Shown piece after piece: positions 11,144 to 48,141 of a stretch of DNA of 64,000 nt. The stretch is taken from the IMG/VR virus record IMGVR_UViG_3300027749_000042; one strand, written 5' to 3'. A program made the position numbers and the translations under genes. Source of the stretch: a virus. The notes beneath the pieces were generated by a model. That model worked only from the letters and a program-made list of their open reading frames with translations. It ran no database searches and was not told the DNA's origin. Numbering within the stretch: the first letter of the stretch is position 1; every line of letters begins with the position of its first letter.

Positions 11144-13527
11144 TAAAATAACCTTCTAAGAGCAGAACCAATTTGTGCGCCAATCATAAATGGTGACAGC
11201 ATTGCTTCTGGGCGATATGTTGGTCCTGCCATCTGTTGAAATATATTAGTTCTAATATCATTTGTGACGGTTCTATTGATAATGTTTGTATCAACTGGTG
11301 GACACGCACACGCACGATTCACAGCATAATCTTGTGATGCCGCACCAAATCCTCCACCTGCACCACCACCAGGCGCACCTGCGGGACCACCAGGGACTGA
11401 AGATGTACCAGAACGATCTATGGAAGCAGAACCACCTTCACCAGCACCCATAGAAAAGTGCATAGCATCTTTTGATGAACGCCAGTTGCCACCCCAACCT
11501 AACCCATACTTGGCAGCTATCGCACCAACATTAGGTGGCATATCTGTTTGTAATCTACCATCTTTCAAATGCGGATTAGCTGATGGATTAATGTCAATCG
11601 CGGCACCTAACGAATGATAACTCTTCGTATTTGTTCCTGCAATATTACGATTAGCATATCCACCAATACTCTTAATCTTGTATCCACTTTTTTCTAGCTC
11701 ATCAACAAACCCTTTGAAATTGCTTGCATACTGAGCGGCAACTGTATATTCTATACCACCTGGAGTTTTTAGCTTAACCATTCCAGGAATAGTAGACGCA
11801 CCATTTCCTAAACTCGCAAGTGAAGTCTGCACTTGTTGCTGAGATGGTGCACCTGTTGTATCTAATGGCCGAACAGTACCAACCTGCTGAATAGGTGCAA
11901 CACTAAATTTCTGATTAAATGCTGCTACTTTTCCTTCTAGCTCTTTTTTCTTTGCCTCATTAGCTTCACCGAGTCTAGCACCAGGACCTTTTCTTGCTGC
12001 AAGATCGTTTATGTTTTTTAACATCGTTACATTGGCTTGATGCGTTGCAGCCTCTTCTGGTGTTGCAGAAGGCCTACGTTCTGGTGCACCTGTAGTCGCG
12101 GCTGCTGGTGTTGATGCGGTAGTTGGACCACCAGATGGTGCAGCTGGTGTTGTTTGTTGAGCAGCAGCAGTTTGAGTGCCATTTTTAGGAACTTTAGGGT
12201 CGATGCCCATACCACGAATTGTATTGGATGTGCTTGTTACATACGACATCCAATCATTATTATAACCTTGTGCATATCTAGGCGTTTTTCCATAATTTTG
12301 AAGCATCATCAATGCTTCTTCAGCAGTCTTTGCATCTGCATATTTTGGTGCCCATTTTTTAACACGAAATGCAACAGCTTCATCAATAGATTCAAAACTT
12401 CTAAAAAATTTACTACCGCCACCAGGGTCTCTTGGCGTAGCTATTCTTACCCCCGGTTCTCTACCCTCTACTCCGGTTTGACCAAACGGGTTATTTTTAC
12501 CCGTCATATGTTTACCCCAACCAGATTCAATAGCCCATTGTGCAGCTACAACTTCTGGAAATGGATCTCCAGCTTTTTTAGCAGATTCCATAATTTGATT
12601 AAAACCAGCTTTACCCGTTGGTCTATCCCCTGCTTCTCCCGCACTAGCACCAGAAGAACCTAAAGGAACCGGTGCTGCTTGTGGCCCTGACCCACCACCA
12701 GGTGCACCGCTTGGACTCGTTGCAATCAAAGCAGCGCCGCCAGCAATTGCTGCGCCTGCTACCGCAAGACCTATACCTACTCTCGTATTTTTAGCAGATC
12801 GAGATTGCTGCATTCTCTGCGCTCGCGCAAGAACTGCGGTGCTTCGCGAAGCTTTGAGTGATTTACGCCCAGCACCTTTACGCCCTGGTTTAGGCGCTAC
12901 AGAACCACCAGCTTGTGTTGGTGCTTTTGCACCAGTTAGCGTCTCAATGACTTTATCTTGAAACTCTTGGTTATTTTGAATCATGGTACGGATGACAGTT
13001 TCATTTTGCTCTGTCATCTTTTGAACAACGCCACTCATCTGTTCAAATAGTTTTGGATATGACTCCATTATCTTCTGATTGGTGGTAATCAGATTGGTAG
13101 CGATAGATACGTTTCGATTGAATTGCTTGATGACCTTACTAGGTACACCTGTTGCTTTAGTTGCGGCCTTTATGCCTGGTGCTTTTGGCATTGCAGCAGC
13201 AATTGCTTCACGTTTTTCTTGCGGTGGAAAATATGCAGCAATCTTATCTGGCGCTGGTTTGCCTTGATCGTCAAGGATAGAACCATCTGGTGCATAGTAG
13301 TATTTGGTATTCTTTAATACGCCAGCAATTTGAGCGTTATTCTTCTTTCGCTTTTTAGGTGCTGCTATCACAACAGCAGCTTCTTCAACTGGAGCAGGCG
13401 CAGCAAACATCGCGGAAATTCGCGCAGACGCGGGAATGCCGTTCTCGTCCACAACCGTACCATCACTCTTGTAATAGTAATCGGTGTTTCCTAAACTGCC
13501 TGCTACTGGTCCTGGCTTTTTAGCCAT
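11143..13527 (-). CDS. Virion-associated peptidoglycan hydrolase: GH73 glucosaminidase plus M15 peptidase domains (tape-measure-like)
   Basis: AAQWAIESGWG...NNPFG...F.S...YA (GH73); GGYANRNI...SYHSLGAAIDIN...WGGNW...DAMHF (M15 Zn peptidase). Confidence 0.8.
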   Translation of the reverse strand: MAKKPGPVAGSLGNTDYYYKSDGTVVDENGIPASARISAMFAAPAPVEEAAVVIAAPKKRKKNNAQIAGVLKNTKYYYAPDGSILDDQGKPAPDKIAAYFPPQEKREAIAAAMPKAPGIKAATKATGVPSKVIKQFNRNVSIATNLITTNQKIMESYPKLFEQMSGVVQKMTEQNETVIRTMIQNNQEFQDKVIETLTGAKAPTQAGGSVAPKPGRKGAGRKSLKASRSTAVLARAQRMQQSRSAKNTRVGIGLAVAGAAIAGGAALIATSPSGAPGGGSGPQAAPVPLGSSGASAGEAGDRPTGKAGFNQIMESAKKAGDPFPEVVAAQWAIESGWGKHMTGKNNPFGQTGVEGREPGVRIATPRDPGGGSKFFRSFESIDEAVAFRVKKWAPKYADAKTAEEALMMLQNYGKTPRYAQGYNNDWMSYVTSTSNTIRGMGIDPKVPKNGTQTAAAQQTTPAAPSGGPTTASTPAAATTGAPERRPSATPEEAATHQANVTMLKNINDLAARKGPGARLGEANEAKKKELEGKVAAFNQKFSVAPIQQVGTVRPLDTTGAPSQQQVQTSLASLGNGASTIPGMVKLKTPGGIEYTVAAQYASNFKGFVDELEKSGYKIKSIGGYANRNIAGTNTKSYHSLGAAIDINPSANPHLKDGRLQTDMPPNVGAIAAKYGLGWGGNWRSSKDAMHFSMGAGEGGSASIDRSGTSSVPGGPAGAPGGGAGGGFGAASQDYAVNRACACPPVDTNIINRTVTNDIRTNIFQQMAGPTYRPEAMLSPFMIGAQIGSALRRLF

Positions 13528-13530
13528 TTG

Positions 13531-13707
13531 TTATCCTCGTTCGCGTTCTTCTTTTAGTTTCTCAAGGTATTCTAGTAGCATCTTAACGTAAATATCCCTC
13601 TCCCAGGGTATCATTCCTTCAATGTCACTCAGAGAATATTTGTGGTGTTGCATAAGCGAAAAATTGGTTTGATAGTAGTTTGCTAATGTGTTATGAGAGA
13701 GGACCAT
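13531..13707 (-). CDS. gp51: gp51-like baseplate hub assembly protein, 58 aa (not in ORF track)
   Basis: MVLSHNTLANYYQTNFSLMQHHKYSLSDIEGMIPWERDIYV...; TAATG overlap with gp26. Confidence 0.8.
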   Translation of the reverse strand: MVLSHNTLANYYQTNFSLMQHHKYSLSDIEGMIPWERDIYVKMLLEYLEKLKEERERG

Positions 13708-37869: not shown

Positions 37870-38085
37870 ATGATAATAGCGAAGGTTAAAGACGCGCCTG
37901 GTTTGGTACGAGATATGTCAAACCAGGCGGTACTCAACACAGACATTTCTGCCCTGGAAGCTTATAAGCGCAAGAGAAATAAGCAACAGGAGATAGACGA
38001 GGTCATCTTGGATATAAATAATATGAAGTCTGATATAGATCAAATAAAATCGCTGATGCAGCGACTTTTAGACAAGATAGGATAA
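37870..38085 (+). CDS. Small coiled-coil protein following the VrlC-like gene
   Basis: KV....LVRD....A.LN.D....Y; heptad C-terminus. Confidence 0.7.
   Translation: MIIAKVKDAPGLVRDMSNQAVLNTDISALEAYKRKRNKQQEIDEVILDINNMKSDIDQIKSLMQRLLDKIG
38013..38020 (+). promoter_or_regulatory. T4-type late promoter (intragenic)
   Basis: TATAAATA about 70 nt before the fibre gene at 38089. Confidence 0.5.
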
Positions 38086-38088
38086 TAG

Positions 38089-39210
38089 ATGGCTAAGATA
38101 GCTAACGTCGCCCTTACGGATACATTTAACACGTGGAGAACACGAACCAACACTGTTTTGGATCGTGTAAGCCAGTTTGCTATCAATAACTCATCTCTGT
38201 ATGCTAACACTCTGACATCCAACGTAGCTTTTACCGCAAAAGGAACTGCTACTGTCACGGGTTTATTTACTGCATCAGGTAGAGCTACTATAGGCACCAA
38301 TCTTACCGTCTCTGGTAATACTACAATAACCGGTTTGACTACAATGAGTGGGCGTGCTACTGTAGGAACAAACCTAACTGTTTCTGGTAATACAACTTTC
38401 GGTGGCGCAAGCAAAACCATAACAATGGGTGGTGCTGCATCTACTCTAACAATTGGTGGCGCTGGACACACAACTAATGCCACAGGTTGGTTCGGTGTTG
38501 CGGGTCGTGCGACAGTTTCGACCAATCTGTTTGTTGGTGGTAATACTGGTATTGGAATAGTACCACAATCTGCTCTATCTGTCAAAGGATACATTCAAGG
38601 CGCGCCAACAGGCGGTGATGGCATTCATATGGGAGCCTCTACAGGCTATGCTGTTGTAGAAATGTCTGGAACAACTGGTGGTTATATTGATTTTAATAAG
38701 GGAGATGGAGTAGATTATAGAGGTCGTATTTTTTATCAACACTCTACAGATGCTCTCACTTTTCATACGGCTGCTGGTTCAGCTTCATTAACAATTGCAG
38801 GTAGTGGTCTTGTAACTGCTGCTAAATCTGCTACAGTTACTCAGAACCTCACAGTTTCTGGTAACACCACACTAGGCGGTACAATAAACGTAGCCGGCGC
38901 AAACATTCTTCAACAAACACTTGCTGATGGTGCTACAGTTAACTGGAACGTAGCACTTGGGCAAATTGCAACTGTTACTCTTGGTGGTAACCGCACAATG
39001 GCTGCACCAACAAATCTAAAAGTAGGTACATATATTCTCCATGTGTATCAAGACGGTACGGGTTCACGCACAATAACATGGAATGCCGTATTCAAGTGGA
39101 CTGCTGCTACTGCTCCTCCATTGACTTCAGCAATCAATTCACATGATGTTTTTTCGTTCGTTTCTGATGGTACAAATCTCTATGGTTCATTCATGCCGGA
39201 TGTAAGATAA
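38089..39210 (+). CDS. Tail fibre/whisker-like protein
   Basis: N-terminal DTFNTWR..TN, repeated GRAT.GTNLTVSGNTT, C-terminal QDGTGSRT.TW...FKW. Confidence 0.7.
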   Translation: MAKIANVALTDTFNTWRTRTNTVLDRVSQFAINNSSLYANTLTSNVAFTAKGTATVTGLFTASGRATIGTNLTVSGNTTITGLTTMSGRATVGTNLTVSGNTTFGGASKTITMGGAASTLTIGGAGHTTNATGWFGVAGRATVSTNLFVGGNTGIGIVPQSALSVKGYIQGAPTGGDGIHMGASTGYAVVEMSGTTGGYIDFNKGDGVDYRGRIFYQHSTDALTFHTAAGSASLTIAGSGLVTAAKSATVTQNLTVSGNTTLGGTINVAGANILQQTLADGATVNWNVALGQIATVTLGGNRTMAAPTNLKVGTYILHVYQDGTGSRTITWNAVFKWTAATAPPLTSAINSHDVFSFVSDGTNLYGSFMPDVR

Positions 39211-39212
39211 AC

Positions 39213-40499
39213 ATGTTCACATTTCTAATGGCAAGACCAACTAAGGTTGTTAATTTCAATAGCTCTACGAACAACGTGGATCTATATAATTCATCGAGTG
39301 CGCCTGCGTACCCGCTGAACTTGCTATGCTTTATCAATAGTAACATTGGATCGACTTCTCCTTCGACTCCTGCATTCAAAACAGGAACAGGTTGGAAAGC
39401 TGGTACATTTCTTTATGTTAAAAATGCTGCTACTATCACAGGTGGTACAGGTACTGCGGGTACACCGGGAAGTACAGGTACTTCGGGTAATATAGGAACA
39501 TCAGGAACTACGGGCGCAGCAGGAAATCCGGGCGCAGCAGGAAACGCTGGTGCAGCAGGAAATGCTGGATCGAACGGCGTTGGTGGTAATGGCGGACAGG
39601 GTGCACCATATAGCGGGATTAACGCAGGAGCTAATGGTGGTGGTGGATCTCCTGGGGCTACTGGTAACGCAGCTGGTGTACCTAATAATGGCGCAGCGGG
39701 CGGCACAGGTGTTACTGGTAATGCGGGCGGAACAGGTAATGCGGGAGGGCCTGGTGGTGCCGGCAATAACGGCGGCACAGGCGGTATTGCATTTCAAATT
39801 GATTCGGTCGCAGGACTAATAAGTGTTATCGAAAATACAACCACATTTACTGGTGGCACCGGCGGTACATTAGGACCAGCAGGACCGGGAGGTCCAGGAG
39901 GACCCGGCGGCGTTGGTGGATCAGGCGGGGTCGGTGGACCAGGAGGTGCGGGGGGACCAGCAGCAAGCGGTGGAACTGGTGGAACTGGCGGCGGTGGCGG
40001 TGGTGGTGGCGGTCGATCACGAGCTGGAGGAAAAGCAGATCCACCATATACAGGTGCTGGTGGTGGAGGTGGTGCAGGATCGACTGGTGGAAATGGTGGT
40101 GCAGCTGGAGTTTATCCTGGTCATATCACTTTTCCAGCCGGAGCTGCTGGAACAGCAAATGCTGGTGGACTTGGCGGTGATGGTGGTGCATGGGGTACTG
40201 GTGGTGGATTAGGTAGCGCTGGACTAGCTGCATATAGCGGCGGCGCCCAGATTTTCGCGGGTTCAACTGCCGGAAGCGGTGGTGGTGCGGGCGGTGCAGG
40301 TAGCTCTGGAACTAGTTACCCAGCAGGCAATAACGGCGCTACCGGACCAACCGGGGCGACGGGCGCAACGGGACCCACGGGTGCAACGGGACCAGCAGGG
40401 GCAGCGGGATCAGCTGGCGCGCAGGGAAGCGCGGTACTTGGTAATGCGTATGTGACAAGTTGGATTAACACAGGAACAAGAAACGGACCAGTAGGATGA
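39213..40499 (+). CDS. Gly-rich adhesin-like fibre-tip protein (Gly-X-X repeats)
   Basis: Long Gly-X-X tracts; ends W.N.G.R.G like polyglycine gp38-type adhesins. Confidence 0.6.
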   Translation: MFTFLMARPTKVVNFNSSTNNVDLYNSSSAPAYPLNLLCFINSNIGSTSPSTPAFKTGTGWKAGTFLYVKNAATITGGTGTAGTPGSTGTSGNIGTSGTTGAAGNPGAAGNAGAAGNAGSNGVGGNGGQGAPYSGINAGANGGGGSPGATGNAAGVPNNGAAGGTGVTGNAGGTGNAGGPGGAGNNGGTGGIAFQIDSVAGLISVIENTTTFTGGTGGTLGPAGPGGPGGPGGVGGSGGVGGPGGAGGPAASGGTGGTGGGGGGGGGRSRAGGKADPPYTGAGGGGGAGSTGGNGGAAGVYPGHITFPAGAAGTANAGGLGGDGGAWGTGGGLGSAGLAAYSGGAQIFAGSTAGSGGGAGGAGSSGTSYPAGNNGATGPTGATGATGPTGATGPAGAAGSAGAQGSAVLGNAYVTSWINTGTRNGPVG

Positions 40500-40933
40500 A
40501 CATTCATTACAAAATCATTGAAGTATGGCCTAATGACCATTTGTTCGTCGTTAGGTATTACACTGACAATCTGAACGAAGAAATGTTGATTTCAGCAAAC
40601 GATTACAATCGTCGTGAAGATGGTTCGCCTATGCGCTGCCGTACAGACGTTGCGATTGATATGCCTATTCCTGCATTAGAAGGTAAAGAGCTAGAGAGTT
40701 TAATTCTATATAATTCTCCTATCTCATTTCTTCGTAAGATGGAAGACGTATTGAATCCTGATATTGATACATCAATGAGCGGTATTATTGATATGATTAA
40801 TAAGCCAGTAACTAAAAGTACTACAGAACTTCTTGCTAAGAAGGCTGACGTACTATCGGATGATGATATCAAGAACCTTATCGAGTCTCTATCGAAGGAC
40901 AACTTTACCAACAAATCATCTAACTCAAAGTAA
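40496..40933 (+). CDS. Hypothetical protein coupled to the Gly-rich gene
   Basis: 145 aa, ATGA overlap. Confidence 0.6.
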   Translation: MNIHYKIIEVWPNDHLFVVRYYTDNLNEEMLISANDYNRREDGSPMRCRTDVAIDMPIPALEGKELESLILYNSPISFLRKMEDVLNPDIDTSMSGIIDMINKPVTKSTTELLAKKADVLSDDDIKNLIESLSKDNFTNKSSNSK

Positions 40934-40948
40934 AGGTGTGTACGTCTG

Positions 40949-42007
40949 ATGATGTTTTATTATGACGATAAAAAGAACGTCTATCGTACACAAACTGACG
41001 CAATCAAGTCAGCCAAATTTTGTCATTTCTATTACCACGACGATGTTTTCAGTAAGGTCGATTGGAAAACAGAACCTACTGAAACGCTTGAACAGATATA
41101 TCGCGAACGCGCACAACAAATTCGTGACCAATATGAGTATGTGATTCTTTGCTATTCTGGTGGGTACGATTCGACAAACATTTTGGAATCGTTCTACTAT
41201 AACAATATTCACATAGATGAGATATTGCTTGTTGGAGCATTCTCGCAAGATTCTAGGTATGGCACCGATGAAAATCATAACGGTGATATATACCACAATG
41301 CTTTTCCAACCCTCAGAAGCATGAATTTGCCTAATACCAAAATCACTGTAGCAGATTACACTGACCATTTTAATGATCCAAATAATTTCACACTTATCAA
41401 AAAGTATGGTAATGAGTGGACAAATCATATCGGTGGATTTAAAAGCGTTCACAATCTATTTTGGTACGACCTCAAAAAATTTGTTGGTAAAAACAATAAC
41501 AAGAACACATGCTATATCATGGGTTCTGATAAACCAGGTTATGAATTTGAGGAAAAAGCTATACGCTTTAATGATTTGTCGGTAAATGATTATGGTGCAA
41601 ATTACCAAGACGAAAATTTCACACGAATCAATTTCTACAATGGTACCGATGATGTGGTTATCAAGCTTATGGTAAAGCAAGGGCATGTTGTTATGAAATT
41701 GGACGACATTTTTTTCAAGATGTACGAAGAGCAAGAAAAGAATGCCCACCCATTACTCAATCGAGAACTTGCTTATTGGAATAAAACAAAACGCATAAAC
41801 GAGATTATATACAATCTAAAAGCACCGATGAAATTTGAATCAACCAAGTCGATGTATAATACACTCAGTGCCAGAGATATGTTCATGTTAAAAAGCCAAA
41901 ATAGCGAGATGTATCGGATGTTCTTAGAAGGCATGAAAAACCTATCATCGTTTAGTCACATTTACAAAAAGTATTGCTTCTGGTCACAACCATACTATCT
42001 AACATGA
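40949..42007 (+). CDS. PP-loop (N-type ATP pyrophosphatase, adenine nucleotide alpha-hydrolase fold) protein A
   Basis: ILCYSGGYDS motif; paralogous to 44142..45344. Confidence 0.75.
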   Translation: MMFYYDDKKNVYRTQTDAIKSAKFCHFYYHDDVFSKVDWKTEPTETLEQIYRERAQQIRDQYEYVILCYSGGYDSTNILESFYYNNIHIDEILLVGAFSQDSRYGTDENHNGDIYHNAFPTLRSMNLPNTKITVADYTDHFNDPNNFTLIKKYGNEWTNHIGGFKSVHNLFWYDLKKFVGKNNNKNTCYIMGSDKPGYEFEEKAIRFNDLSVNDYGANYQDENFTRINFYNGTDDVVIKLMVKQGHVVMKLDDIFFKMYEEQEKNAHPLLNRELAYWNKTKRINEIIYNLKAPMKFESTKSMYNTLSARDMFMLKSQNSEMYRMFLEGMKNLSSFSHIYKKYCFWSQPYYLT

Positions 42008-42471
42008 GCTACGTTCTCGTCTTTCTTCTATGGACTTTCGTTGTCTATTGGGCGCATCGTGCGGCCCATGTGATTCCTGTTGTGCGTAAATTCCATATGG
42101 ATCATCACGCGCAGGTAACCGACCAGACAATTCAAGGGTTAAACTGGAAGAATGCGTTTCTCTTTTTTGATACCTGGAATAGCACCATAGATCAGTGGTT
42201 GACAGAAGTGATTCCAACGATTATAATATCTTTAATCACTGGGCATTGGTGGTTGCTCATTGCGTACTACATCTGGGCTGGTTTTATCCAAGAAGCTGTC
42301 GAGCATAATAAACGCATCAATCTCTACCCATTTCTAACAAGTGGTAGATGGCATCTAATTCATCACGAATATGCGACAAAGAATTATGGTGTATTCGTGC
42401 CTATTTGGGACTTAGTTTTTGGTACATGGAAAGGCTTAGATGGCAACGGAAAACAATTGGCTTCGAAGTAA
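42004..42471 (+). CDS. Sterol desaturase/fatty-acid hydroxylase superfamily membrane enzyme
   Basis: His boxes YWAHRAAH, FHMDHH, EH, WHLIHH, NYG...WD..FGT; ATG 42004 overlaps upstream stop. Confidence 0.85.
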   Translation: MSYVLVFLLWTFVVYWAHRAAHVIPVVRKFHMDHHAQVTDQTIQGLNWKNAFLFFDTWNSTIDQWLTEVIPTIIISLITGHWWLLIAYYIWAGFIQEAVEHNKRINLYPFLTSGRWHLIHHEYATKNYGVFVPIWDLVFGTWKGLDGNGKQLASK

Positions 42472-43240
42472 TCTATCAGAAAGATTGCTCAATAACTCAA
42501 CCGATTTTGTGGTACACTTAGACACTAAACCATATAAGGTAATGAGTTTTGACGATGCAGCCAATTATACGGCTGACATAATAGCCACTAAATCATCGAA
42601 GGTGTTTATCGGATTCAGCGGTGGTATGGATTCCGAGTTCGTGTTCAGACGTATGATTGACCGTGGGCACAACGTGATACCTGTAATTGTCAATACACCA
42701 ATCAACAAATATGAATCTGCTTATGCTTTTCGTGTATGCAAACAATATGGTATTGAACCTATTGTAATTGACAAAACGCCTACCGAATTGCTTACGATAT
42801 TCGTTGATGATATTTTTAAAAAACTAAGTGGGTATGGACACAACTCTGTACCAGGGCTCATTGTAGGGCGATATGCAGAAGATCATGGTGGCATTATGAT
42901 TATGAGCGAACATATCATTGACGACAACGATGATAAAATGTATGTTGGGGCTAATGAATGGGACTTCTATAATGACGTTTTAATTCATAACGATAACACA
43001 CACTATTTCTTCACATATACACCAGAGCTATGTTGTGCTATGGTAAAAGAAATGATAGATGAGACCGTTCAAGATTTCAAATCGAGAGTATACAATATCC
43101 CGTGGCGTCCAAAATTTTCATATGATTATGGGTCGGCATATGATCTAGCATTTGTCCGTATTAGACAGCATCGACTACACACGCCAGACCCTAATCACAA
43201 TTTTGGCACCAAAGAGCAATTTTTATCATTGTTTGATTGA
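42440..43240 (+). CDS. PP-loop protein B
   Basis: VFIGFSGGMDSE motif. Confidence 0.7.
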   Translation: MATENNWLRSNLSERLLNNSTDFVVHLDTKPYKVMSFDDAANYTADIIATKSSKVFIGFSGGMDSEFVFRRMIDRGHNVIPVIVNTPINKYESAYAFRVCKQYGIEPIVIDKTPTELLTIFVDDIFKKLSGYGHNSVPGLIVGRYAEDHGGIMIMSEHIIDDNDDKMYVGANEWDFYNDVLIHNDNTHYFFTYTPELCCAMVKEMIDETVQDFKSRVYNIPWRPKFSYDYGSAYDLAFVRIRQHRLHTPDPNHNFGTKEQFLSLFD

Positions 43241-44152
43241 GTCTTCATATTTCTTGACCAATTGCTTTTGTCTTGCAATTTCGGTTCGAAGAAACTGTTC
43301 GTTGTTATTACACTCGAATACCAATTTCAATTTGGCAATAACGTCGCGTACGGCATCTGACGCGCAAGCTTCGTGTACTGATTTTTTAATCTCGTCAATG
43401 AACTTAGCATTTACTTTAGGTGCATAGAGAAGTAGTGAAGATGCGTAATTGAAGTCTTTAATGCCCAATTCAAGTCCAGTCGGCACATTTGGATATTGAG
43501 AATTCCTATTGGGCAATGAGATAGCCAACAATTTTAGACCAGGTGTGTCGATAGGATTTTGAACTGAGTAATCTACTTCACCCATAAGAATACTTTTGGT
43601 AATTTCTCCTGGTGTTTTGTACTGAATCATTTTGACATTATTGATATCATACTGCTTGCGAAAGATTGCATCAAGAAGTTTTGGTGAAATAGCTTGCACT
43701 GTGGCTCCATTAAACACCTCCTTCTTTTCCTTCATATATTTAACAAATTGGTCTAACGAATCTATCTTCAAATCAGGAGAAACCATTATAGCGTTTGGCA
43801 CCAAAGCGATAAGTTCAATCGGAATAAAATCGGCATCGCGATCAATTGTCGAATTGTATATGATTGGATTGAGTGTGAAATTGGAAATTGTACCAGATAC
43901 AATAGTGTTTGTACCTAATTTGGCTTCGGCTAATGCTTTACCGTCAGCAGCTTCTCCTCCAGAACCAGGAATAGTGCCTAATCTAAAATCATATTTTTCA
44001 TCAAGCTTTTTGTTCAACTCGGTAATGAGTGTCGCTGTAACAAAAGCTGTTGGGTCGTTAGCAGGAAATCTGGTATACACGTTTATGCGTTCTTCAGCAC
44101 ATACACCAAATGTTGCAAGAGAAAAACAAATCAGTAGTAGTTTACGAAGCAT
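43226..44152 (-). CDS. Bug/TctC-like periplasmic solute-binding protein 1 (divergent)
   Basis: Signal peptide MLRKLLLICFSLATFGVCA; PGSGG, DFIPI, Y......I..GEVD, LA....R....PNVPT..ELG. Confidence 0.7.
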   Translation of the reverse strand: MLRKLLLICFSLATFGVCAEERINVYTRFPANDPTAFVTATLITELNKKLDEKYDFRLGTIPGSGGEAADGKALAEAKLGTNTIVSGTISNFTLNPIIYNSTIDRDADFIPIELIALVPNAIMVSPDLKIDSLDQFVKYMKEKKEVFNGATVQAISPKLLDAIFRKQYDINNVKMIQYKTPGEITKSILMGEVDYSVQNPIDTPGLKLLAISLPNRNSQYPNVPTGLELGIKDFNYASSLLLYAPKVNAKFIDEIKKSVHEACASDAVRDVIAKLKLVFECNNNEQFLRTEIARQKQLVKKYEDSIKQ

Positions 44153-45344
44153 GATTTAACTCCAATTTTCCGATAAGGTAAGGTTGTGATCTTAACATTG
44201 AGTAGAATTGATATTTTTTATTTATCTTTTCAAATCGTTTTTCTTTTGATTCGCGATACTCTTTCAAAAACCCTTCAGTCGTATGAGTTCCAACTACAGT
44301 CTCATACAGTTTAAATTCTGGGTTTTTTATCGTTGGTTTAGGTCCAGCATACGTTTGTGGATTCCAATCTGGATATATCATCGAACTAAAACTTCTTTCC
44401 AGCATAATAGCTGAGGAATGAATAGGTTTTACCGAGTTATGATTTTTAAGCTCTTCTCTACTTTGTGTAAAAAATTCGTAGTATTTTCTATCGGTTTCTA
44501 GTCGCTTTTTAATGATATGGGATTGCTTGATTGGAATCAAAGGCATATCTCTTGACCAAAAAAAATCTTCTGTAGTATAAGTTGCTGCAAATTCGCGTAG
44601 ATTGAGCGATGCTGTTGTGACCATTGTTTGGTCAGTAAAATGAAAAAATAAAGAGTTGTTTTTGATATGCAAAGCAGGTTTTTCCATACCGCGCACGATG
44701 CACATAGAGTTTTTGTCTTTTGATCTTTCATAGTTGGTTGTATAAAATAATTGCCACCATTGATTGTTTGGTCCCATAGATGATGAGATTCGTGGGTATT
44801 GATGTTTGATTCTACCATTATTTCCAATGATTGTATATTTGCCTGTTGAAAGCTGATCGTGCAGAAGATCGGATGCATCAACGATAGTGATTTTTGTTTT
44901 TGGACTTAATTCCAACACTTTCTTGAGCATTGGTAAAGCAGCAAGTTCGTACTCAAGCAAAATTTGAAATTCGTTGTCTCTCAACATATCTGCTCGGTCA
45001 AGATTTTTTGTCATTTTATGAAGATTTGCAACTTGGATTTCGTCAATGAATATATTGTTTTTTAGAAATGACCATAGAACTTGTGTTGAATCGCTACCAC
45101 CAGAGAAAGCAAGAACCACATACTTGTACTTGTCTCGTATCTGTTGGGCTCTGATTTTGTATAGTAGACCAATATCGAAATCTGGTTCTGCCATCCAATC
45201 GCATTTTTCAAACACATCATTATTGTAATAGTATTTAAGTTTTACATCATAATCTTGACGAATTAGCGCATAATCAAATGCGTCTTCGCGAGTAAAAAAT
45301 CGTTTGTCGTCGTATACATAAAACCCACAATGCAGATGATTCAT
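44142..45344 (-). CDS. PP-loop protein C (paralog of 40949..42007)
   Basis: RAQQIRDKYKYVVLAFSGGSDS...NNIFIDEI, GMEKP, KQSH. Confidence 0.75.
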   Translation of the reverse strand: MNHLHCGFYVYDDKRFFTREDAFDYALIRQDYDVKLKYYYNNDVFEKCDWMAEPDFDIGLLYKIRAQQIRDKYKYVVLAFSGGSDSTQVLWSFLKNNIFIDEIQVANLHKMTKNLDRADMLRDNEFQILLEYELAALPMLKKVLELSPKTKITIVDASDLLHDQLSTGKYTIIGNNGRIKHQYPRISSSMGPNNQWWQLFYTTNYERSKDKNSMCIVRGMEKPALHIKNNSLFFHFTDQTMVTTASLNLREFAATYTTEDFFWSRDMPLIPIKQSHIIKKRLETDRKYYEFFTQSREELKNHNSVKPIHSSAIMLERSFSSMIYPDWNPQTYAGPKPTIKNPEFKLYETVVGTHTTEGFLKEYRESKEKRFEKINKKYQFYSMLRSQPYLIGKLELNHAS

Positions 45345-45422
45345 GTTATATGATTTCCTTATCTTGCAATTTCATAGTCTTATATATGATAAATAGAATA
45401 AAGTCGAATAGGGAGAATTTTC

Positions 45423-45869
45423 ATGACCGACGCACCGGTAAAACTTGTATGGATAATCACTGGCTTGGTTGATTATCATTGGAACGACATATATTTTCCG
45501 ATAGATTCGCCAAATGCGCATGGTGTTGAATATGATGCTAGGGATGAGCTGCAACGCATCGACCGTCGGGAAGGCTATTCAAAGGTCAATTTTGATCATG
45601 CGTTAATTCGTCAAAATAGAGAAACTATTGCACCAGAATTATTTGAAGGTTTTGAAGGTTGGACTAGAAGATATGCAGACGACAATACCAATTTAACCGT
45701 TGAAATTTATTTTCAAAATGCAAACTTAGCGATGGCTTACAACCAAAAAGTAATTGAAGTCCGCGATAAACTGGAAGCAATTGAATTGAAGCCTAAGATT
45801 AATAAATACCAATTTTATTGGGCAATCCTTAACAGAAAAACAGGACAATTGTATCTACAAAACGAGTGA
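45423..45869 (+). CDS. Hypothetical protein
   Basis: 148 aa; GGGAG RBS; GATAAATA late-promoter-like motif at 45388-45395. Confidence 0.6.
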   Translation: MTDAPVKLVWIITGLVDYHWNDIYFPIDSPNAHGVEYDARDELQRIDRREGYSKVNFDHALIRQNRETIAPELFEGFEGWTRRYADDNTNLTVEIYFQNANLAMAYNQKVIEVRDKLEAIELKPKINKYQFYWAILNRKTGQLYLQNE

Positions 45870-45876
45870 AACGATA

Positions 45877-46497
45877 TCATTGGAACTTTGGACCAAGCAC
45901 CCATACGACAATAGATAAGCGTCTACCTTTAGTTACTGGCGCAACCCGATGGATCAAAAAGGAAGGGAATAGAACAGCCCTTCCTTTTACTTTTGGTACT
46001 GTAATAGGATCATTTTCTTTACCGTCGTTAATTTGAAATTCACCACCCTCATAATCATCATTTAACATCATAGTGAGTGATAGTTTGCGCGGTTCAATAT
46101 CTAAGTTTCCTTTCGAATCACCAAGCGCCATATCCATATGCCAATCATATCGTCCTTCTCTGGTTGAATCATATGTTGTGTATTGAAATGTTGCGTAACC
46201 ATTCAATTCATAACCATAATACATTTCATTGATTGACTGAATAATAAAATTCAATCTATCAAATATCCACGCAGTTTCTGGTGTTCTGTTGTGAAATGCA
46301 ATTTGTGATATTCTATGCTTTTCAACTTCAATCGGATCTGAAGATTCCATAATTGTGCTTTGTTGAACGCCTTGTGCATCACAATATTCAATGATAGCTT
46401 GGAGTTCTTCGTCGGTAAATGCGCCGTCCCAATAAGCCCAAGGTTCTGTCACTTTGGTTCGTTTATGCGGATCATTATAAATCGTTGTGTGCTTCAT
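45877..46497 (-). CDS. 2OG-Fe(II) oxygenase (PKHD/prolyl-4-hydroxylase-like)
   Basis: YDWHMD, RKLS....LN.DYEGGEF, FPS...HRV.PVT.G.R.S.V.W. Confidence 0.9.
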   Translation of the reverse strand: MKHTTIYNDPHKRTKVTEPWAYWDGAFTDEELQAIIEYCDAQGVQQSTIMESSDPIEVEKHRISQIAFHNRTPETAWIFDRLNFIIQSINEMYYGYELNGYATFQYTTYDSTREGRYDWHMDMALGDSKGNLDIEPRKLSLTMMLNDDYEGGEFQINDGKENDPITVPKVKGRAVLFPSFLIHRVAPVTKGRRLSIVVWVLGPKFQ

Positions 46498-47177
46498 TAA
46501 AAGGTTCTCCAGTTACTTACGGGTTGCACACCCAATGGTTTTGCTGCTTTCTCTTTATACGTCATCAGAATATCGGCAGCAAGACATATTCGCATCTGAT
46601 CTAAATTATTTGGCGTAAAACACCCAGTTTCCATCTGCTCTGATTGCCCTACTGTGTCGTGCGGTACGTTTGATGGAAAAACAAATAGCTGCCCTTCTTT
46701 CGGTTCTAGTTGCCATGTGTATGCATTGAATGCGTCCCAATGTGATGGGTTATTAAATTTGATGCATCCAGGAAATGGTTCATATCTATGCTCATAATTA
46801 TAGAAGCGAATTGGCTTTGAGAAATCTTTTGGTATGTTAATGTAGTATGTAAACGACATGTGAGCGTCACCATGACTATGCATAGGCGTCTGTCTGTTCT
46901 TGGTAATGTTCATCCAAGTTTTGACTAGATTAAATTCAAATACGTTTGGATCAACGTAGAGTCTCGCAACGTATTGTCTAACCGAGTCTACAGCAAATTT
47001 GAATAGTGGTTCAAATGCAGGTTCGTGGTGAAGATTGACATGCCCAGTGTATTCATTCGAGAATCCATCTGGTGACATATAATCGAAAATCTTGTCGTAG
47101 AAAACTTGCTTGAAATTGTCTTTGTCTGGATATTCAAATTCAGCTAGAAGTGTTGGAAATAAAATATGTTCTTTCAT
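46497..47177 (-). CDS. Putative 2OG-Fe(II) oxygenase (TIGR02466-like)
   Basis: LFPT, W.N......HSH....S..YY, P.EG.L..FPS...H, RICLA. Confidence 0.8.
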   Translation of the reverse strand: MKEHILFPTLLAEFEYPDKDNFKQVFYDKIFDYMSPDGFSNEYTGHVNLHHEPAFEPLFKFAVDSVRQYVARLYVDPNVFEFNLVKTWMNITKNRQTPMHSHGDAHMSFTYYINIPKDFSKPIRFYNYEHRYEPFPGCIKFNNPSHWDAFNAYTWQLEPKEGQLFVFPSNVPHDTVGQSEQMETGCFTPNNLDQMRICLAADILMTYKEKAAKPLGVQPVSNWRTF

Positions 47178-47178
47178 A

Positions 47179-48141
47179 TCACTTCACCTTATAAATCTGT
47201 TTGAGACTATTGAGCGTTTCTATACCTACTGGAGTTTTTATCATGGTTTCCATATCAGCACCGCTGATTGCATTGATATCTATGTTTGCACGGCGAGCGT
47301 CTTCCACATATTCAGCATCTACCATTACTTTTGAGAACGCATTGCGTAGTTCATCTATGCGTGATTTTGGCACGCCAGGTGGTGCTACGAATGGGCGCAA
47401 CATTATGAACTGGGATTCAAAAGCATGAAGGAGCTTTCTGTCTTTATCGTCTGTTATATATTCAGCCAGTGCTGGAACTTCCTTATATTCTGGTAGACGG
47501 GCCGTACCGTTGCCAAACTGGAGCGTTGGATAGATGCCGCTGCCTGACTGTAACCAGTTGGGCTTTTGCGTTTTGATACCAATCAAGCTATAGATAACCG
47601 CATCCACTTCCTTGCGCTCAAGCGCGAGACGGTTAGCACCGGTCGTTGGATAACCACCGACAATCTTGAAATTGGTGCCAAGCATTCTGTTGACAAACAA
47701 AGCCATGTTGCCTGATGTGGCACCCTCAGCACCTACAACGAAGTCTGACCGAAACTTCGGTTCATTGGCCCATAGAATAACAGCATCCTTGCGGCCGTCT
47801 GCTACTGATCCAATCCAGTTGAAATGGTTAGGGTCAAACTGAACTCCCTCACCACCTAATAGCCCTACAAACGGAATCTCTTTATAGACGATGCCGATAA
47901 CGCTACCATCTCTCGGCGCAATATTGTATAGGTAATTGGCTGCAACTAAGCTCGCAGCGCCTGGCATGGATTGGATAGTTATAGTAGGATTGTCTGGTAA
48001 GTATTTACCGAGATGCCTGGATAGAATCCGAGCGTTGATATTATAACTATCGTCATTGGATGGAGTGATTATTTTTAGTTCAGACGCCGCAGCCGCAAGC
48101 GAAATGAAGCCAATAAAGAGCATTACAATCAAACGAATCAT
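47179..48141 (-). CDS. Bug/TctC-like periplasmic solute-binding protein 2
   Basis: Signal peptide; ARIL.RHL.KYLP.NP.I....MPGA.SL.AANYLY..AP.DG, F.WIGS, LALER.EVD, RPFVAPPGVP..R...LR.AF. Confidence 0.85.
   Translation of the reverse strand: MIRLIVMLFIGFISLAAAASELKIITPSNDDSYNINARILSRHLGKYLPDNPTITIQSMPGAASLVAANYLYNIAPRDGSVIGIVYKEIPFVGLLGGEGVQFDPNHFNWIGSVADGRKDAVILWANEPKFRSDFVVGAEGATSGNMALFVNRMLGTNFKIVGGYPTTGANRLALERKEVDAVIYSLIGIKTQKPNWLQSGSGIYPTLQFGNGTARLPEYKEVPALAEYITDDKDRKLLHAFESQFIMLRPFVAPPGVPKSRIDELRNAFSKVMVDAEYVEDARRANIDINAISGADMETMIKTPVGIETLNSLKQIYKVK

Follow-up and report, generated by a model that had tools for sequence, protein, structure and literature searches.

A candidate modular cassette of asparagine-synthetase-B-type enzymes and exported solute-binding proteins in an uncultured marine T4-like phage

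Between the fibre and neck genes of virus record IMGVR_UViG_3300027749_000042, of which a stretch of 64,000 nucleotides (the window) was analysed, lies an island of enzyme and binding-protein genes that belongs to a gene cassette recurring in many uncultured phages. Our reading, to which we give roughly even chances, is that the island is a single copy of a modular cassette, specific to viruses, that captures one or more small organic acids and chemically tailors them. Positions 40949-48141 are occupied by nine open reading frames (ORFs), which encode three PP-loop proteins (A, B and C), two solute-binding proteins of the TctC type (TctC1 and TctC2), a membrane hydroxylase (FAH), two 2-oxoglutarate (2OG) oxygenases (OG3 and OG5) and a small protein, P0006 (Table 1). 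A first-pass annotation, made by a model from the sequence alone, had named all but the last of these, and the eight are indeed located where it had placed them. It started the unit at 40949, but the unit begins about 450 bp earlier and includes a further gene, up145; it also left P0006 as a mere unknown, whereas this ORF is a member of a conserved helper family.

Linkage of the cassette genes across phages

Gene neighbourhoods show that A, FAH, B, C, the ABM-like protein P0006, up145 and TctC-type proteins travel together in many uncultured phages. A scan of IMG/VR for relatives of C gave at least 479 loci, of which 80, on contigs of 5-524 kb, were retained, and family hidden Markov models (HMMs) were run on these 80 and on four earlier loci (L numbers below). 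The complete cassette is present in about 25 T4-like loci, and most of the remaining loci carry C-TctC pairs. The related T4-like phages arrange these genes as up145 > A > FAH > B > (290-aa gene) > small ORF > C > TctC > small ORF > C > TctC; OG3, OG5 and TctC2 come next, on the opposite strand, and gp13 after them. This syntenic order is kept in L001, L002 and L004-L029, with proteins 30-65% identical to those of the window; for A, the orthologues in L001, L002 and L004 share 50-59% identity.

The association is also found where T4 synteny is absent. A 186-kb contig of this kind carries A > FAH > B > TctC > C. On a second non-syntenic contig, DctP and TctC genes come after TctC > C, and a third carries A > FAH > C > B > TctC > small ORF and then an amidoligase-like gene, the two oxygenases lying alongside. 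With broader HMMs, a TctC-like gene abuts 57 of the 115 distinct A/C-type genes, at a distance of up to 200 bp, and such a pair is present in 46 of 74 loci. Among the other neighbours in distant loci (n=121) the most frequent Pfam families were DctP (11), GNAT acetyltransferases (5), radical SAM (4) and NMO (3), with TctA, DUF2061 and FA_desaturase twice each; SBP_bac_5 occurred once. Four metagenome proteins of 651-688 aa (P0011, P0035, P0081 and P0128) are fusions with a B-type N-terminal and a C-type C-terminal part.

Within the island itself several genes overlap or abut, as first described, with junctions of -4 bp (A/FAH), -32 (FAH/B), -15 (B/TctC1), -11 (TctC1/C), -1 (OG3/OG5) and +1 (OG5/TctC2). 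From these junctions, TctC1 is seen to be translationally coupled to C through its 11-bp overlap, and TctC2 to OG5 > OG3. Co-occurrence in syntenic and non-syntenic contexts, the B-C fusions and the translational coupling thus support, at the level of sequence, a functionally linked modular cassette and not random cargo, in agreement with the initial proposal of a linked and apparently undescribed system. That proposal had called for a neighbourhood search of viral databases, and would have been weakened had the genes failed to co-occur elsewhere; instead, the sub-modules recur in unrelated contexts. PP-loop, TctC and FAH genes co-occur in many uncultured phages, but the 2OG genes are seldom found alongside PP-loop genes outside the T4-like clade. 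The suggested association with fibre genes did not hold beyond that clade either, as distant phages have unrelated surroundings and fibre families are missing from the 25 commonest PHROGs and Pfams of the distant-locus neighbours.

PP-loop enzymes

The six-frame translation of the window contains three SGGxDS motifs, all of them in the island; 200 shuffles gave 0.065 on average and never more than 1. In PP-loop ATP pyrophosphatases this motif is the pyrophosphate-binding loop that follows the first strand of the Rossmann-like (HUP) fold. The three proteins had been grouped together as PP-loop ATPases; the motif is present in each, but by sequence A and C alone are paralogs (26% identity, E 1e-25), and B, which shares the motif region alone with them, is of a different PP-loop lineage. 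Neither A nor C has a Pfam match at E <=0.01, a meaningful NCBIfam match or a usable PHROG match, and the profile of their family retrieved one chance match and no AsnB from the PDB sequences. By sequence, the C family is outside the AsnB family. An alignment of 52 relatives of C contains 17 invariant residues, including S81, G82, G83, D85, S86, D101, D156 and K222, and there is no cysteine among them.

The AlphaFold model of C (predicted local distance difference test score, pLDDT, 89.7; predicted template modelling score, pTM, 0.91) was compared with all PDB representatives, and a Foldseek search was run separately. The best neighbour was human asparagine synthetase, ASNS (Z 11.4, 285 residues aligned, root-mean-square deviation (rmsd) 5.0), followed by E. 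coli AsnB (Z 11.3), TsnB9 (9.9), beta-lactam synthetase (9.9) and carbapenam synthetase (8.6). NadE, GMP synthase, LarE, TilS, QueC and PAPS reductase all gave Z <=7.9, and an N-acetyl sugar amidotransferase Z 5.6. The Foldseek check, which the first-pass annotation had recommended, agrees in placing AsnB-class synthetases first. This fold match indicates that the C family resembles carboxylate-adenylating, amide-forming enzymes. C and A have about 55-70 residues ahead of the PP-loop region and no conserved Cys, and the model of C lacks the N-terminal nucleophile (Ntn) glutaminase domain that carries the catalytic Cys1 of AsnB. A and C are stand-alone synthetase domains of the asparagine-synthetase-B type, without glutaminase, as shown for C by the fold of its model. 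The alternative of a tRNA thiolase or QueC/LarE-type enzyme was rejected for C, given the lack of a conserved Cys and the top scores of the AsnB class.

In the PDB, the profile of the B family matched an NH3-dependent NAD (nicotinamide adenine dinucleotide) synthetase (E 1.8e-5) and TtuA (E 4.8e-5), in both cases over the N-terminal half. Conserved Cys residues that could hold an Fe-S cluster or Zn, or serve as sacrificial sulfur, are absent from the family, and the C-terminal half contains an invariant NEWDFYN-type motif and is without match. In the B-C fusions, B sits where AsnB has its glutaminase domain. A complex prediction of C with B scored 0.00 against a mark of 0.32, which gives no answer and was counted for neither side.

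Solute-binding proteins

TctC1 exceeds the cut-off of PF03401 (56.1 bits against 27), and its relatives in the PDB, aligned over nearly the whole length, include adipate- and terephthalate-binding proteins and BugD. With TctC2, single-sequence searches of Pfam and PDB gave nothing significant (PF03401, 11.7 bits, under the cut-off); its family aligns with that of TctC1 in hhalign with a probability of 99.3% (E 3.6e-20, 282 columns), and 10 of its 11 orthologues touch PF03401 weakly (best E 3.8e-7). By profile comparison TctC2 is a divergent TctC, so that the island does hold the two such proteins first annotated. The phage TctC1 clade is old to judge by its divergence, as identity is 37% inside it and at most 28% to any cellular Bug/TctC, with bit scores falling from 232 to 61.

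A signal peptide (basic, hydrophobic, AxA) could be read in all 57 TctC1-type and all 15 TctC2-type ORFs, by pattern and not by a dedicated predictor. The PP-loop proteins A, B and C have none. DctP-like ORFs that accompany the cassette in other phages also lack a signal, all 28 beginning at the mature domain. In several unrelated loci, DctP-like genes without signal are broken up into a pair of ORFs of some 160 aa each (L003, 12319-13276; L056, 11309-12264; L065, 7943-8987), beside intact copies of about 320 aa. The membrane components TctA and TctB are not encoded within the island; in L063, a phage-encoded TctA (12301-13638) adjoins C and a DctP-like gene.

Hydroxylase, oxygenases and small proteins

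The gene between A and B was initially called a desaturase. It does encode a His-box membrane enzyme, whose precise family is FA_hydroxylase, PF04116 (E 9.5e-17, 62.1 bits, cut-off 31, profile positions 2-132 of 132), with the three boxes HRAAH, HMDHH and HLIHH. Translation probably begins with the ATG at 42004, which gives 155 aa, the length of the orthologues. The two 2OG oxygenases were correctly recognised: OG3 matches PF13640 (E 5.9e-16, 59.7 bits, cut-off 27) and phrog_61 (E 3.7e-32), OG5 matches PF13759 (E 9e-11, 42.5 bits, cut-off 27) and phrog_81 (E 1.2e-25), and the expected HxD...H residues are present in both (HMD...H in OG3, HGD...H in OG5).

The motif of up145 is nearly invariant among its orthologues, which every T4-like locus has upstream of A and which adjoin C-type genes in the non-syntenic L048, L079, L084 and L091. 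No sequence match was found for up145 in Pfam, PHROG or PDB, and no fused form among longer proteins. P0006 aligns in hhalign (probability 96.4%, E 1e-9) with a family of small ORFs of 125-140 aa, usually directly upstream of C-type genes, and by this similarity is a conserved helper of the cassette. Its model (pLDDT 77.6) has ABM/ferredoxin-like dimers as its top PDB neighbours, about 30 in number (best Z 8.4, 88 residues, rmsd 2.6), and suggests a dimeric alpha+beta barrel of the ABM-like type; at sequence level P0006 has no match to ABM proteins.

Distribution of the enzyme family

The A/C profile found at least 1,738 representatives at E <=1e-3, 874 of them at E <=1e-30, among 1.84 billion clusters at 50%. 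Only four contigs, all from metagenome-assembled genomes, carry relatives among 185,579 prokaryote species, and three of the four have an adjoining DctP-like or up145 gene. On these searches the A/C enzyme family is nearly purely viral, and no Pfam, NCBIfam or PHROG model covers it. The 50,697 deposited phage genomes contain no match to the island by megablast, nor to C or TctC1 by tblastn, and cultured phages thus give no annotated relative. Full-text literature searches brought up no account of phages coupling TctC-type binding proteins to PP-loop ligases. A pelagimyophage paper mentions just "substrate transport" and "radical SAM" cassettes for the island region, and a tctA domain hit is noted in a paper on a SUP05 virus.

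Genomic setting and expression signals

The window belongs, by its gene content, to an uncultured marine T4-like myophage. Its PHROG matches include the baseplate wedge, a VrlC-like protein (2,174 aa), fibres, gp13, gp14, gp15, both terminase subunits, sheath and portal, and the portal is at most 58% identical to cyanomyophage portals. As first noted, the island is flanked by fibre and neck genes, with a collagen-repeat fibre gene on one side and gp13/gp14 on the other. In marine T4-like phages, the corresponding region from VrlC to the neck genes was described as a plastic "host recognition cluster" (PMC7029224).

The window contains 12 NATAAATA late-promoter boxes on the + strand, 10 of which are located 30-75 bp upstream of a gene start. 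After the box ahead of the fibre genes, TATAAATA, the next one on this strand is GATAAATA, ahead of P0006, and the genes within 38089-43240 are spaced by 15 bp or less. Since there is no + strand box between the two, the fibre gene, the collagen-like fibre gene, up145, A, FAH and B probably form a single late transcript. Like P0006, gp13 has its own late-promoter box. The box scan of the window gave none for C and none for the TctC2 > OG5 > OG3 operon, so that these may be early or middle genes. Scans for sigma-70 promoters and terminators gave island counts equal to those of shuffled sequence, and for this reason only the late-promoter boxes were relied on. A perfect sigma-70 consensus (TTGACA, 17 nt, TATAAT; 12/12) does lie at 42199-42227 on the + strand, within FAH and about 210 bp upstream of B; this could allow expression of B independently of the late transcript.

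Table 1. Genes and late-promoter boxes of the island and its surroundings (positions in the window)
Feature	Position	Strand	Length (aa)	Description
Late-promoter box TATAAATA	38013-38020	+		Ahead of fibre genes
Collagen-like fibre	39213-40499		428	Directly upstream of up145; triple-helix repeats, PF01391
up145 (P0127)	40496-40933	+	145	Directly upstream of PP-loop A; GSPxRCRTD motif
PP-loop A (P0001)	40949-42007	+	352	SGGYDS; predicted AsnB-type synthetase-domain paralog of C
FAH	42004-42471	+	155	PF04116 membrane di-iron hydroxylase, nested between A and B
PP-loop B (P0002)	42440-43240	+	266	SGGMDS; other PP-loop lineage, NadE/TtuA/LarE-like N-terminal half
TctC1 (P0004)	43226-44152	-	308	PF03401 solute-binding protein of the TTT family, predicted exported
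PP-loop C (P0003)	44142-45344	-	400	SGGSDS; hallmark gene, predicted AsnB-type synthetase domain
Late-promoter box	44225	-		Precedes TctC1
Late-promoter box GATAAATA	45388-45395	+		Ahead of P0006
P0006	45423-45869	+	148	Small helper family; ABM-like model
OG3	45877-46497	-		PF13640, prolyl-hydroxylase-like 2OG-Fe(II) oxygenase; last gene of TctC2 > OG5 > OG3
OG5	46497-47177	-		PF13759, TIGR02466/2OG-FeII_Oxy_5-type 2OG-Fe(II) oxygenase
TctC2 (P0005)	47179-48141	-	320	Divergent TctC-like, predicted exported; first gene of the OG5/OG3 operon
TTT, tripartite tricarboxylate transporter.

Other features of the window and related loci

The first 80 or so residues of the 428-aa collagen-like protein are common with its counterparts in L001 and L004 and the remainder differs, indicating that its distal part is swappable. 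Far from the island, ARAGORN detected a permuted transfer-messenger RNA (tmRNA) at 2236-2634, with the tag peptide ANDNTPISYALAA, followed by a tRNA-Gln (TTG) at 2841-2916; a late-promoter box lies at 2250. The permuted tmRNA is a possible clue to the host lineage, and the sole one.

In related loci, radical SAM/SPASM genes lie between or beside C-type genes (L002, 7050-8330; L074, 7641-9038; L083, 8296-9669), and in the L074 gene the SPASM part is N-terminal to the core. In freshwater phage contigs, a gene of the tryptophan-halogenase family (L034, 7799-9403), an FA_desaturase gene (L035, 9168-9983) and the TctA gene of L063 stand directly beside C-type genes. A conserved gene of about 290 aa follows B in L001 (6193-7077), L002 (3578-4450), L009, L011, L014, L015, L027 and L061 and is absent from the window. 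The nearest virus record, G001, carries the same families, with A/C-type genes at C1:9843-10904 (-) and 99901-100956 (-); one A/C-type gene has an in-frame TGA, and the third family member lies about 90 kb from the cassette.

Proposed function and alternative explanations

The coupling of acid-binding genes to enzyme genes, the occasional TctA and the AsnB-type fold suggest that binding protein and enzyme share a small ligand. In the simplest model, high-affinity binding proteins made by the phage would be sent into the periplasm of the host, where they might dock on its TctAB, if present, and import one or more small organic acids, by analogy with PstS and PstCAB; hosts of the SAR11 type hold several strongly expressed TctCBA versions (PMC11796062). 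The cytoplasmic AsnB-type enzymes would then adenylate the carboxylate, giving acyl-AMP and PPi, and form an amide with ammonia or another amine, which are the nitrogen donors to be expected because the glutaminase domain is absent. B could activate a second carboxylate or work on the same intermediate, and FAH, the ABM-like protein and the two 2OG oxygenases might add or rearrange oxygen functions. The chemistry of carboxylate capture, ligation and hydroxylation put forward in the first-pass annotation fits both the AsnB-type fold of C and the organic-acid-binding families.

Some observations weigh against acid capture and tailoring. The first "pincer" loop of TctC proteins, PxGGxxD, is replaced by FPANDP in TctC1 and by PSNDDS in TctC2, and the ligand is perhaps no classical carboxylate. 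The signal-less DctP-like partners of many relatives suggest cytoplasmic presentation of a ligand rather than uptake. Roughly one in two A/C-type genes lacks a neighbouring TctC, oxygenases of the OG3 and OG5 types are widespread in phages, including cyanophages, without the rest of the cassette, and the apparent late co-transcription of A, FAH and B with fibre genes suits modification of the virion or envelope as well as it does metabolism.

It is possible that the pathway makes a dedicated small molecule required for infection, through two or three successive ATP-dependent amidations and hydroxylations of a scarce environmental acid, which we regard as rather unlikely. Such a product could be a cofactor-like or NAD-related amide offsetting host defence or starvation, or else a diffusible signal. 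Bug27 and Bug69 bind pyridine carboxylates (PMC11452294), and B resembles NadE; as this likeness is limited to the generic PP-loop half, NAD salvage is left as speculation.

Modification of the virion or of another protein is an explanation that we consider unlikely. Here the ligases would act on a protein or peptide carboxylate, as lasso cyclases do on Asp/Glu side chains, or as the QueC-like Cap9 joins a base to protein, OG3 would hydroxylate the collagen-like fibres, and either up145 or the helper would serve as substrate or for recognition, as a subunit. The cassette does come after the collagen-repeat fibre gene, seemingly under the same late promoter, and OG3 falls in the prolyl-4-hydroxylase-like PF13640; in some relatives radical SAM/SPASM genes, a hallmark of peptide maturases, are inserted between C-TctC pairs, and a weak Amidoligase_2 neighbour is present in L004. 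However, binding proteins that always have export signals and an FAH from an integral membrane, lipid-oxidising family are a misfit with fibre maturation in the cytoplasm. Moreover, the neighbours in distant loci are replication, nucleotide and metabolic genes without a common fibre family, and neither a fused up145 nor, among island ORFs of at least 50 aa, a lasso-type B protein, RRE or short precursor was found. A lasso-peptide cluster was set aside because no B protein was found among these ORFs; none of the nine island proteins has an RRE/PqqD-like or transglutaminase-like peptidase Pfam domain.

Remodelling of the host envelope, for instance as a superinfection block, seems quite unlikely to us. 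FAH and the ligases would in that case modify host lipids or carboxylates of the cell wall or lipopolysaccharide, with the TctC proteins acting on the envelope in the periplasm, on the model of aminolipid hydroxylation by OlsE, diaminopimelate amidation by AsnB/LtsA and sugar-acid amidation by WbpG. This would agree with the FA_hydroxylase assignment of FAH, with the FA_desaturase, NMO (FabK-like) and DUF2061 membrane proteins of distant cassettes, with the N-acetyl sugar amidotransferase among the fold neighbours of C, and with the location of the island in the "host recognition cluster", where envelope-modifying genes were proposed to act against co-infection (PMC7029224). On the other hand, the match of FAH to the OlsE model is weak (E 0.027) and far under the cut-off (13.8 against 475 bits), FAH is absent from many C-TctC loci, the island has no glycosyl-, acyl- or lipid-transferase, and the steady partners of the ligases are solute-binding proteins of transporter families, with TctA in some phages. 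That unrelated accessory genes merely gathered at an insertion-tolerant spot is highly improbable. The region is known to be plastic, the orientation of the genes is mixed, relatives vary by duplicated pairs, radical SAM inserts and the extra 290-aa gene, and the oxygenases are found alone in many other phages. Nevertheless, the sub-modules recur elsewhere, including non-T4-like and jumbo phages, in loci whose protein identities (27-48%) and contig sizes (5-524 kb) argue against near-identical kin, with B-C fusions, gene overlaps of 1-32 bp and the same helper family before C-type genes. As the C and TctC1 families are unmatched in 50,697 phage genomes, it is implausible that three PP-loop and two TctC genes arrived together by chance, and the random-island explanation is largely refuted by the co-occurrence and fusion data and effectively excluded.

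The A/C family is large and diverse, extends from 5-kb fragments to jumbo phages of 524 kb and has no characterised member. The pairing of its enzymes with exported TctC or cytoplasmic DctP proteins points to an access of phages to host solute uptake together with small-molecule chemistry. The hosts are probably abundant marine and freshwater bacteria, in which transporters of the TTT and tripartite ATP-independent periplasmic (TRAP) families dominate the uptake of dissolved organic matter; if so, the cassette could alter carbon flow in infected cells. If a dedicated molecule is made, this would be a new class of phage secondary or auxiliary metabolism, drawn from an enzyme family of more than 1,700 clusters. 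The binding proteins could serve as bait for the ligand of the cassette.

Comparison with known systems

The closest structural parallels of C are AsnB, ASNS, beta-lactam and carbapenam synthetases, TsnB9 and lasso cyclases, with which it shares the SGGxDS motif and the synthetase fold (Z 8.6-11.4, 247-288 residues). By analogy with this class, adenylation of a carboxylate followed by amide formation would be the chemistry expected of the phage enzymes, and the pathways of beta-lactam and carbapenam synthetases also have 2OG oxygenase genes close by, as the phage island does. However, phage C is only 7-10% identical to the structures compared (E. coli AsnB 1ct9, beta-lactam synthetase 1jgt, carbapenam synthetase 1q15 and TsnB9 7ylz), has no glutaminase domain and no Pfam Asn_synthase match, and is virus-restricted; its partners are binding proteins, whereas the AsnB-class relatives pair with precursor peptides or crotonase-type partners. 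For B, the profiles that match the N-terminal half are those of NadE, TtuA/NcsA, LarE and QueC, including the protein-modifying QueC-like Cap9 and the anti-phage QatC. Unlike these, B has no conserved Cys, its C-terminal half is unmatched, and its fusion partner or neighbour is an AsnB-type enzyme.

The phage TctC proteins share Sec-type signals with cellular TctC/Bug proteins such as BugD, BugE, Bug27, AdpC and TphC, and have enzyme-gene neighbours as the "orphan" Bug genes do, which are located beside enzyme genes and not beside tctAB. They differ from the cellular proteins in being virus-encoded, in their altered pincer loop and in their coupling to a PP-loop ligase or to 2OG oxygenases. 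A further parallel is the PstS of cyanophages, which is said to work with the PstCAB of the host. In both cases the virus would supply only the soluble, specificity-determining part of a transporter; however, the phage TctC proteins belong to TTT/TRAP and not to ATP-binding cassette systems, and, as read from gene content, each phage has several paralogs, each tied to a cytoplasmic enzyme.

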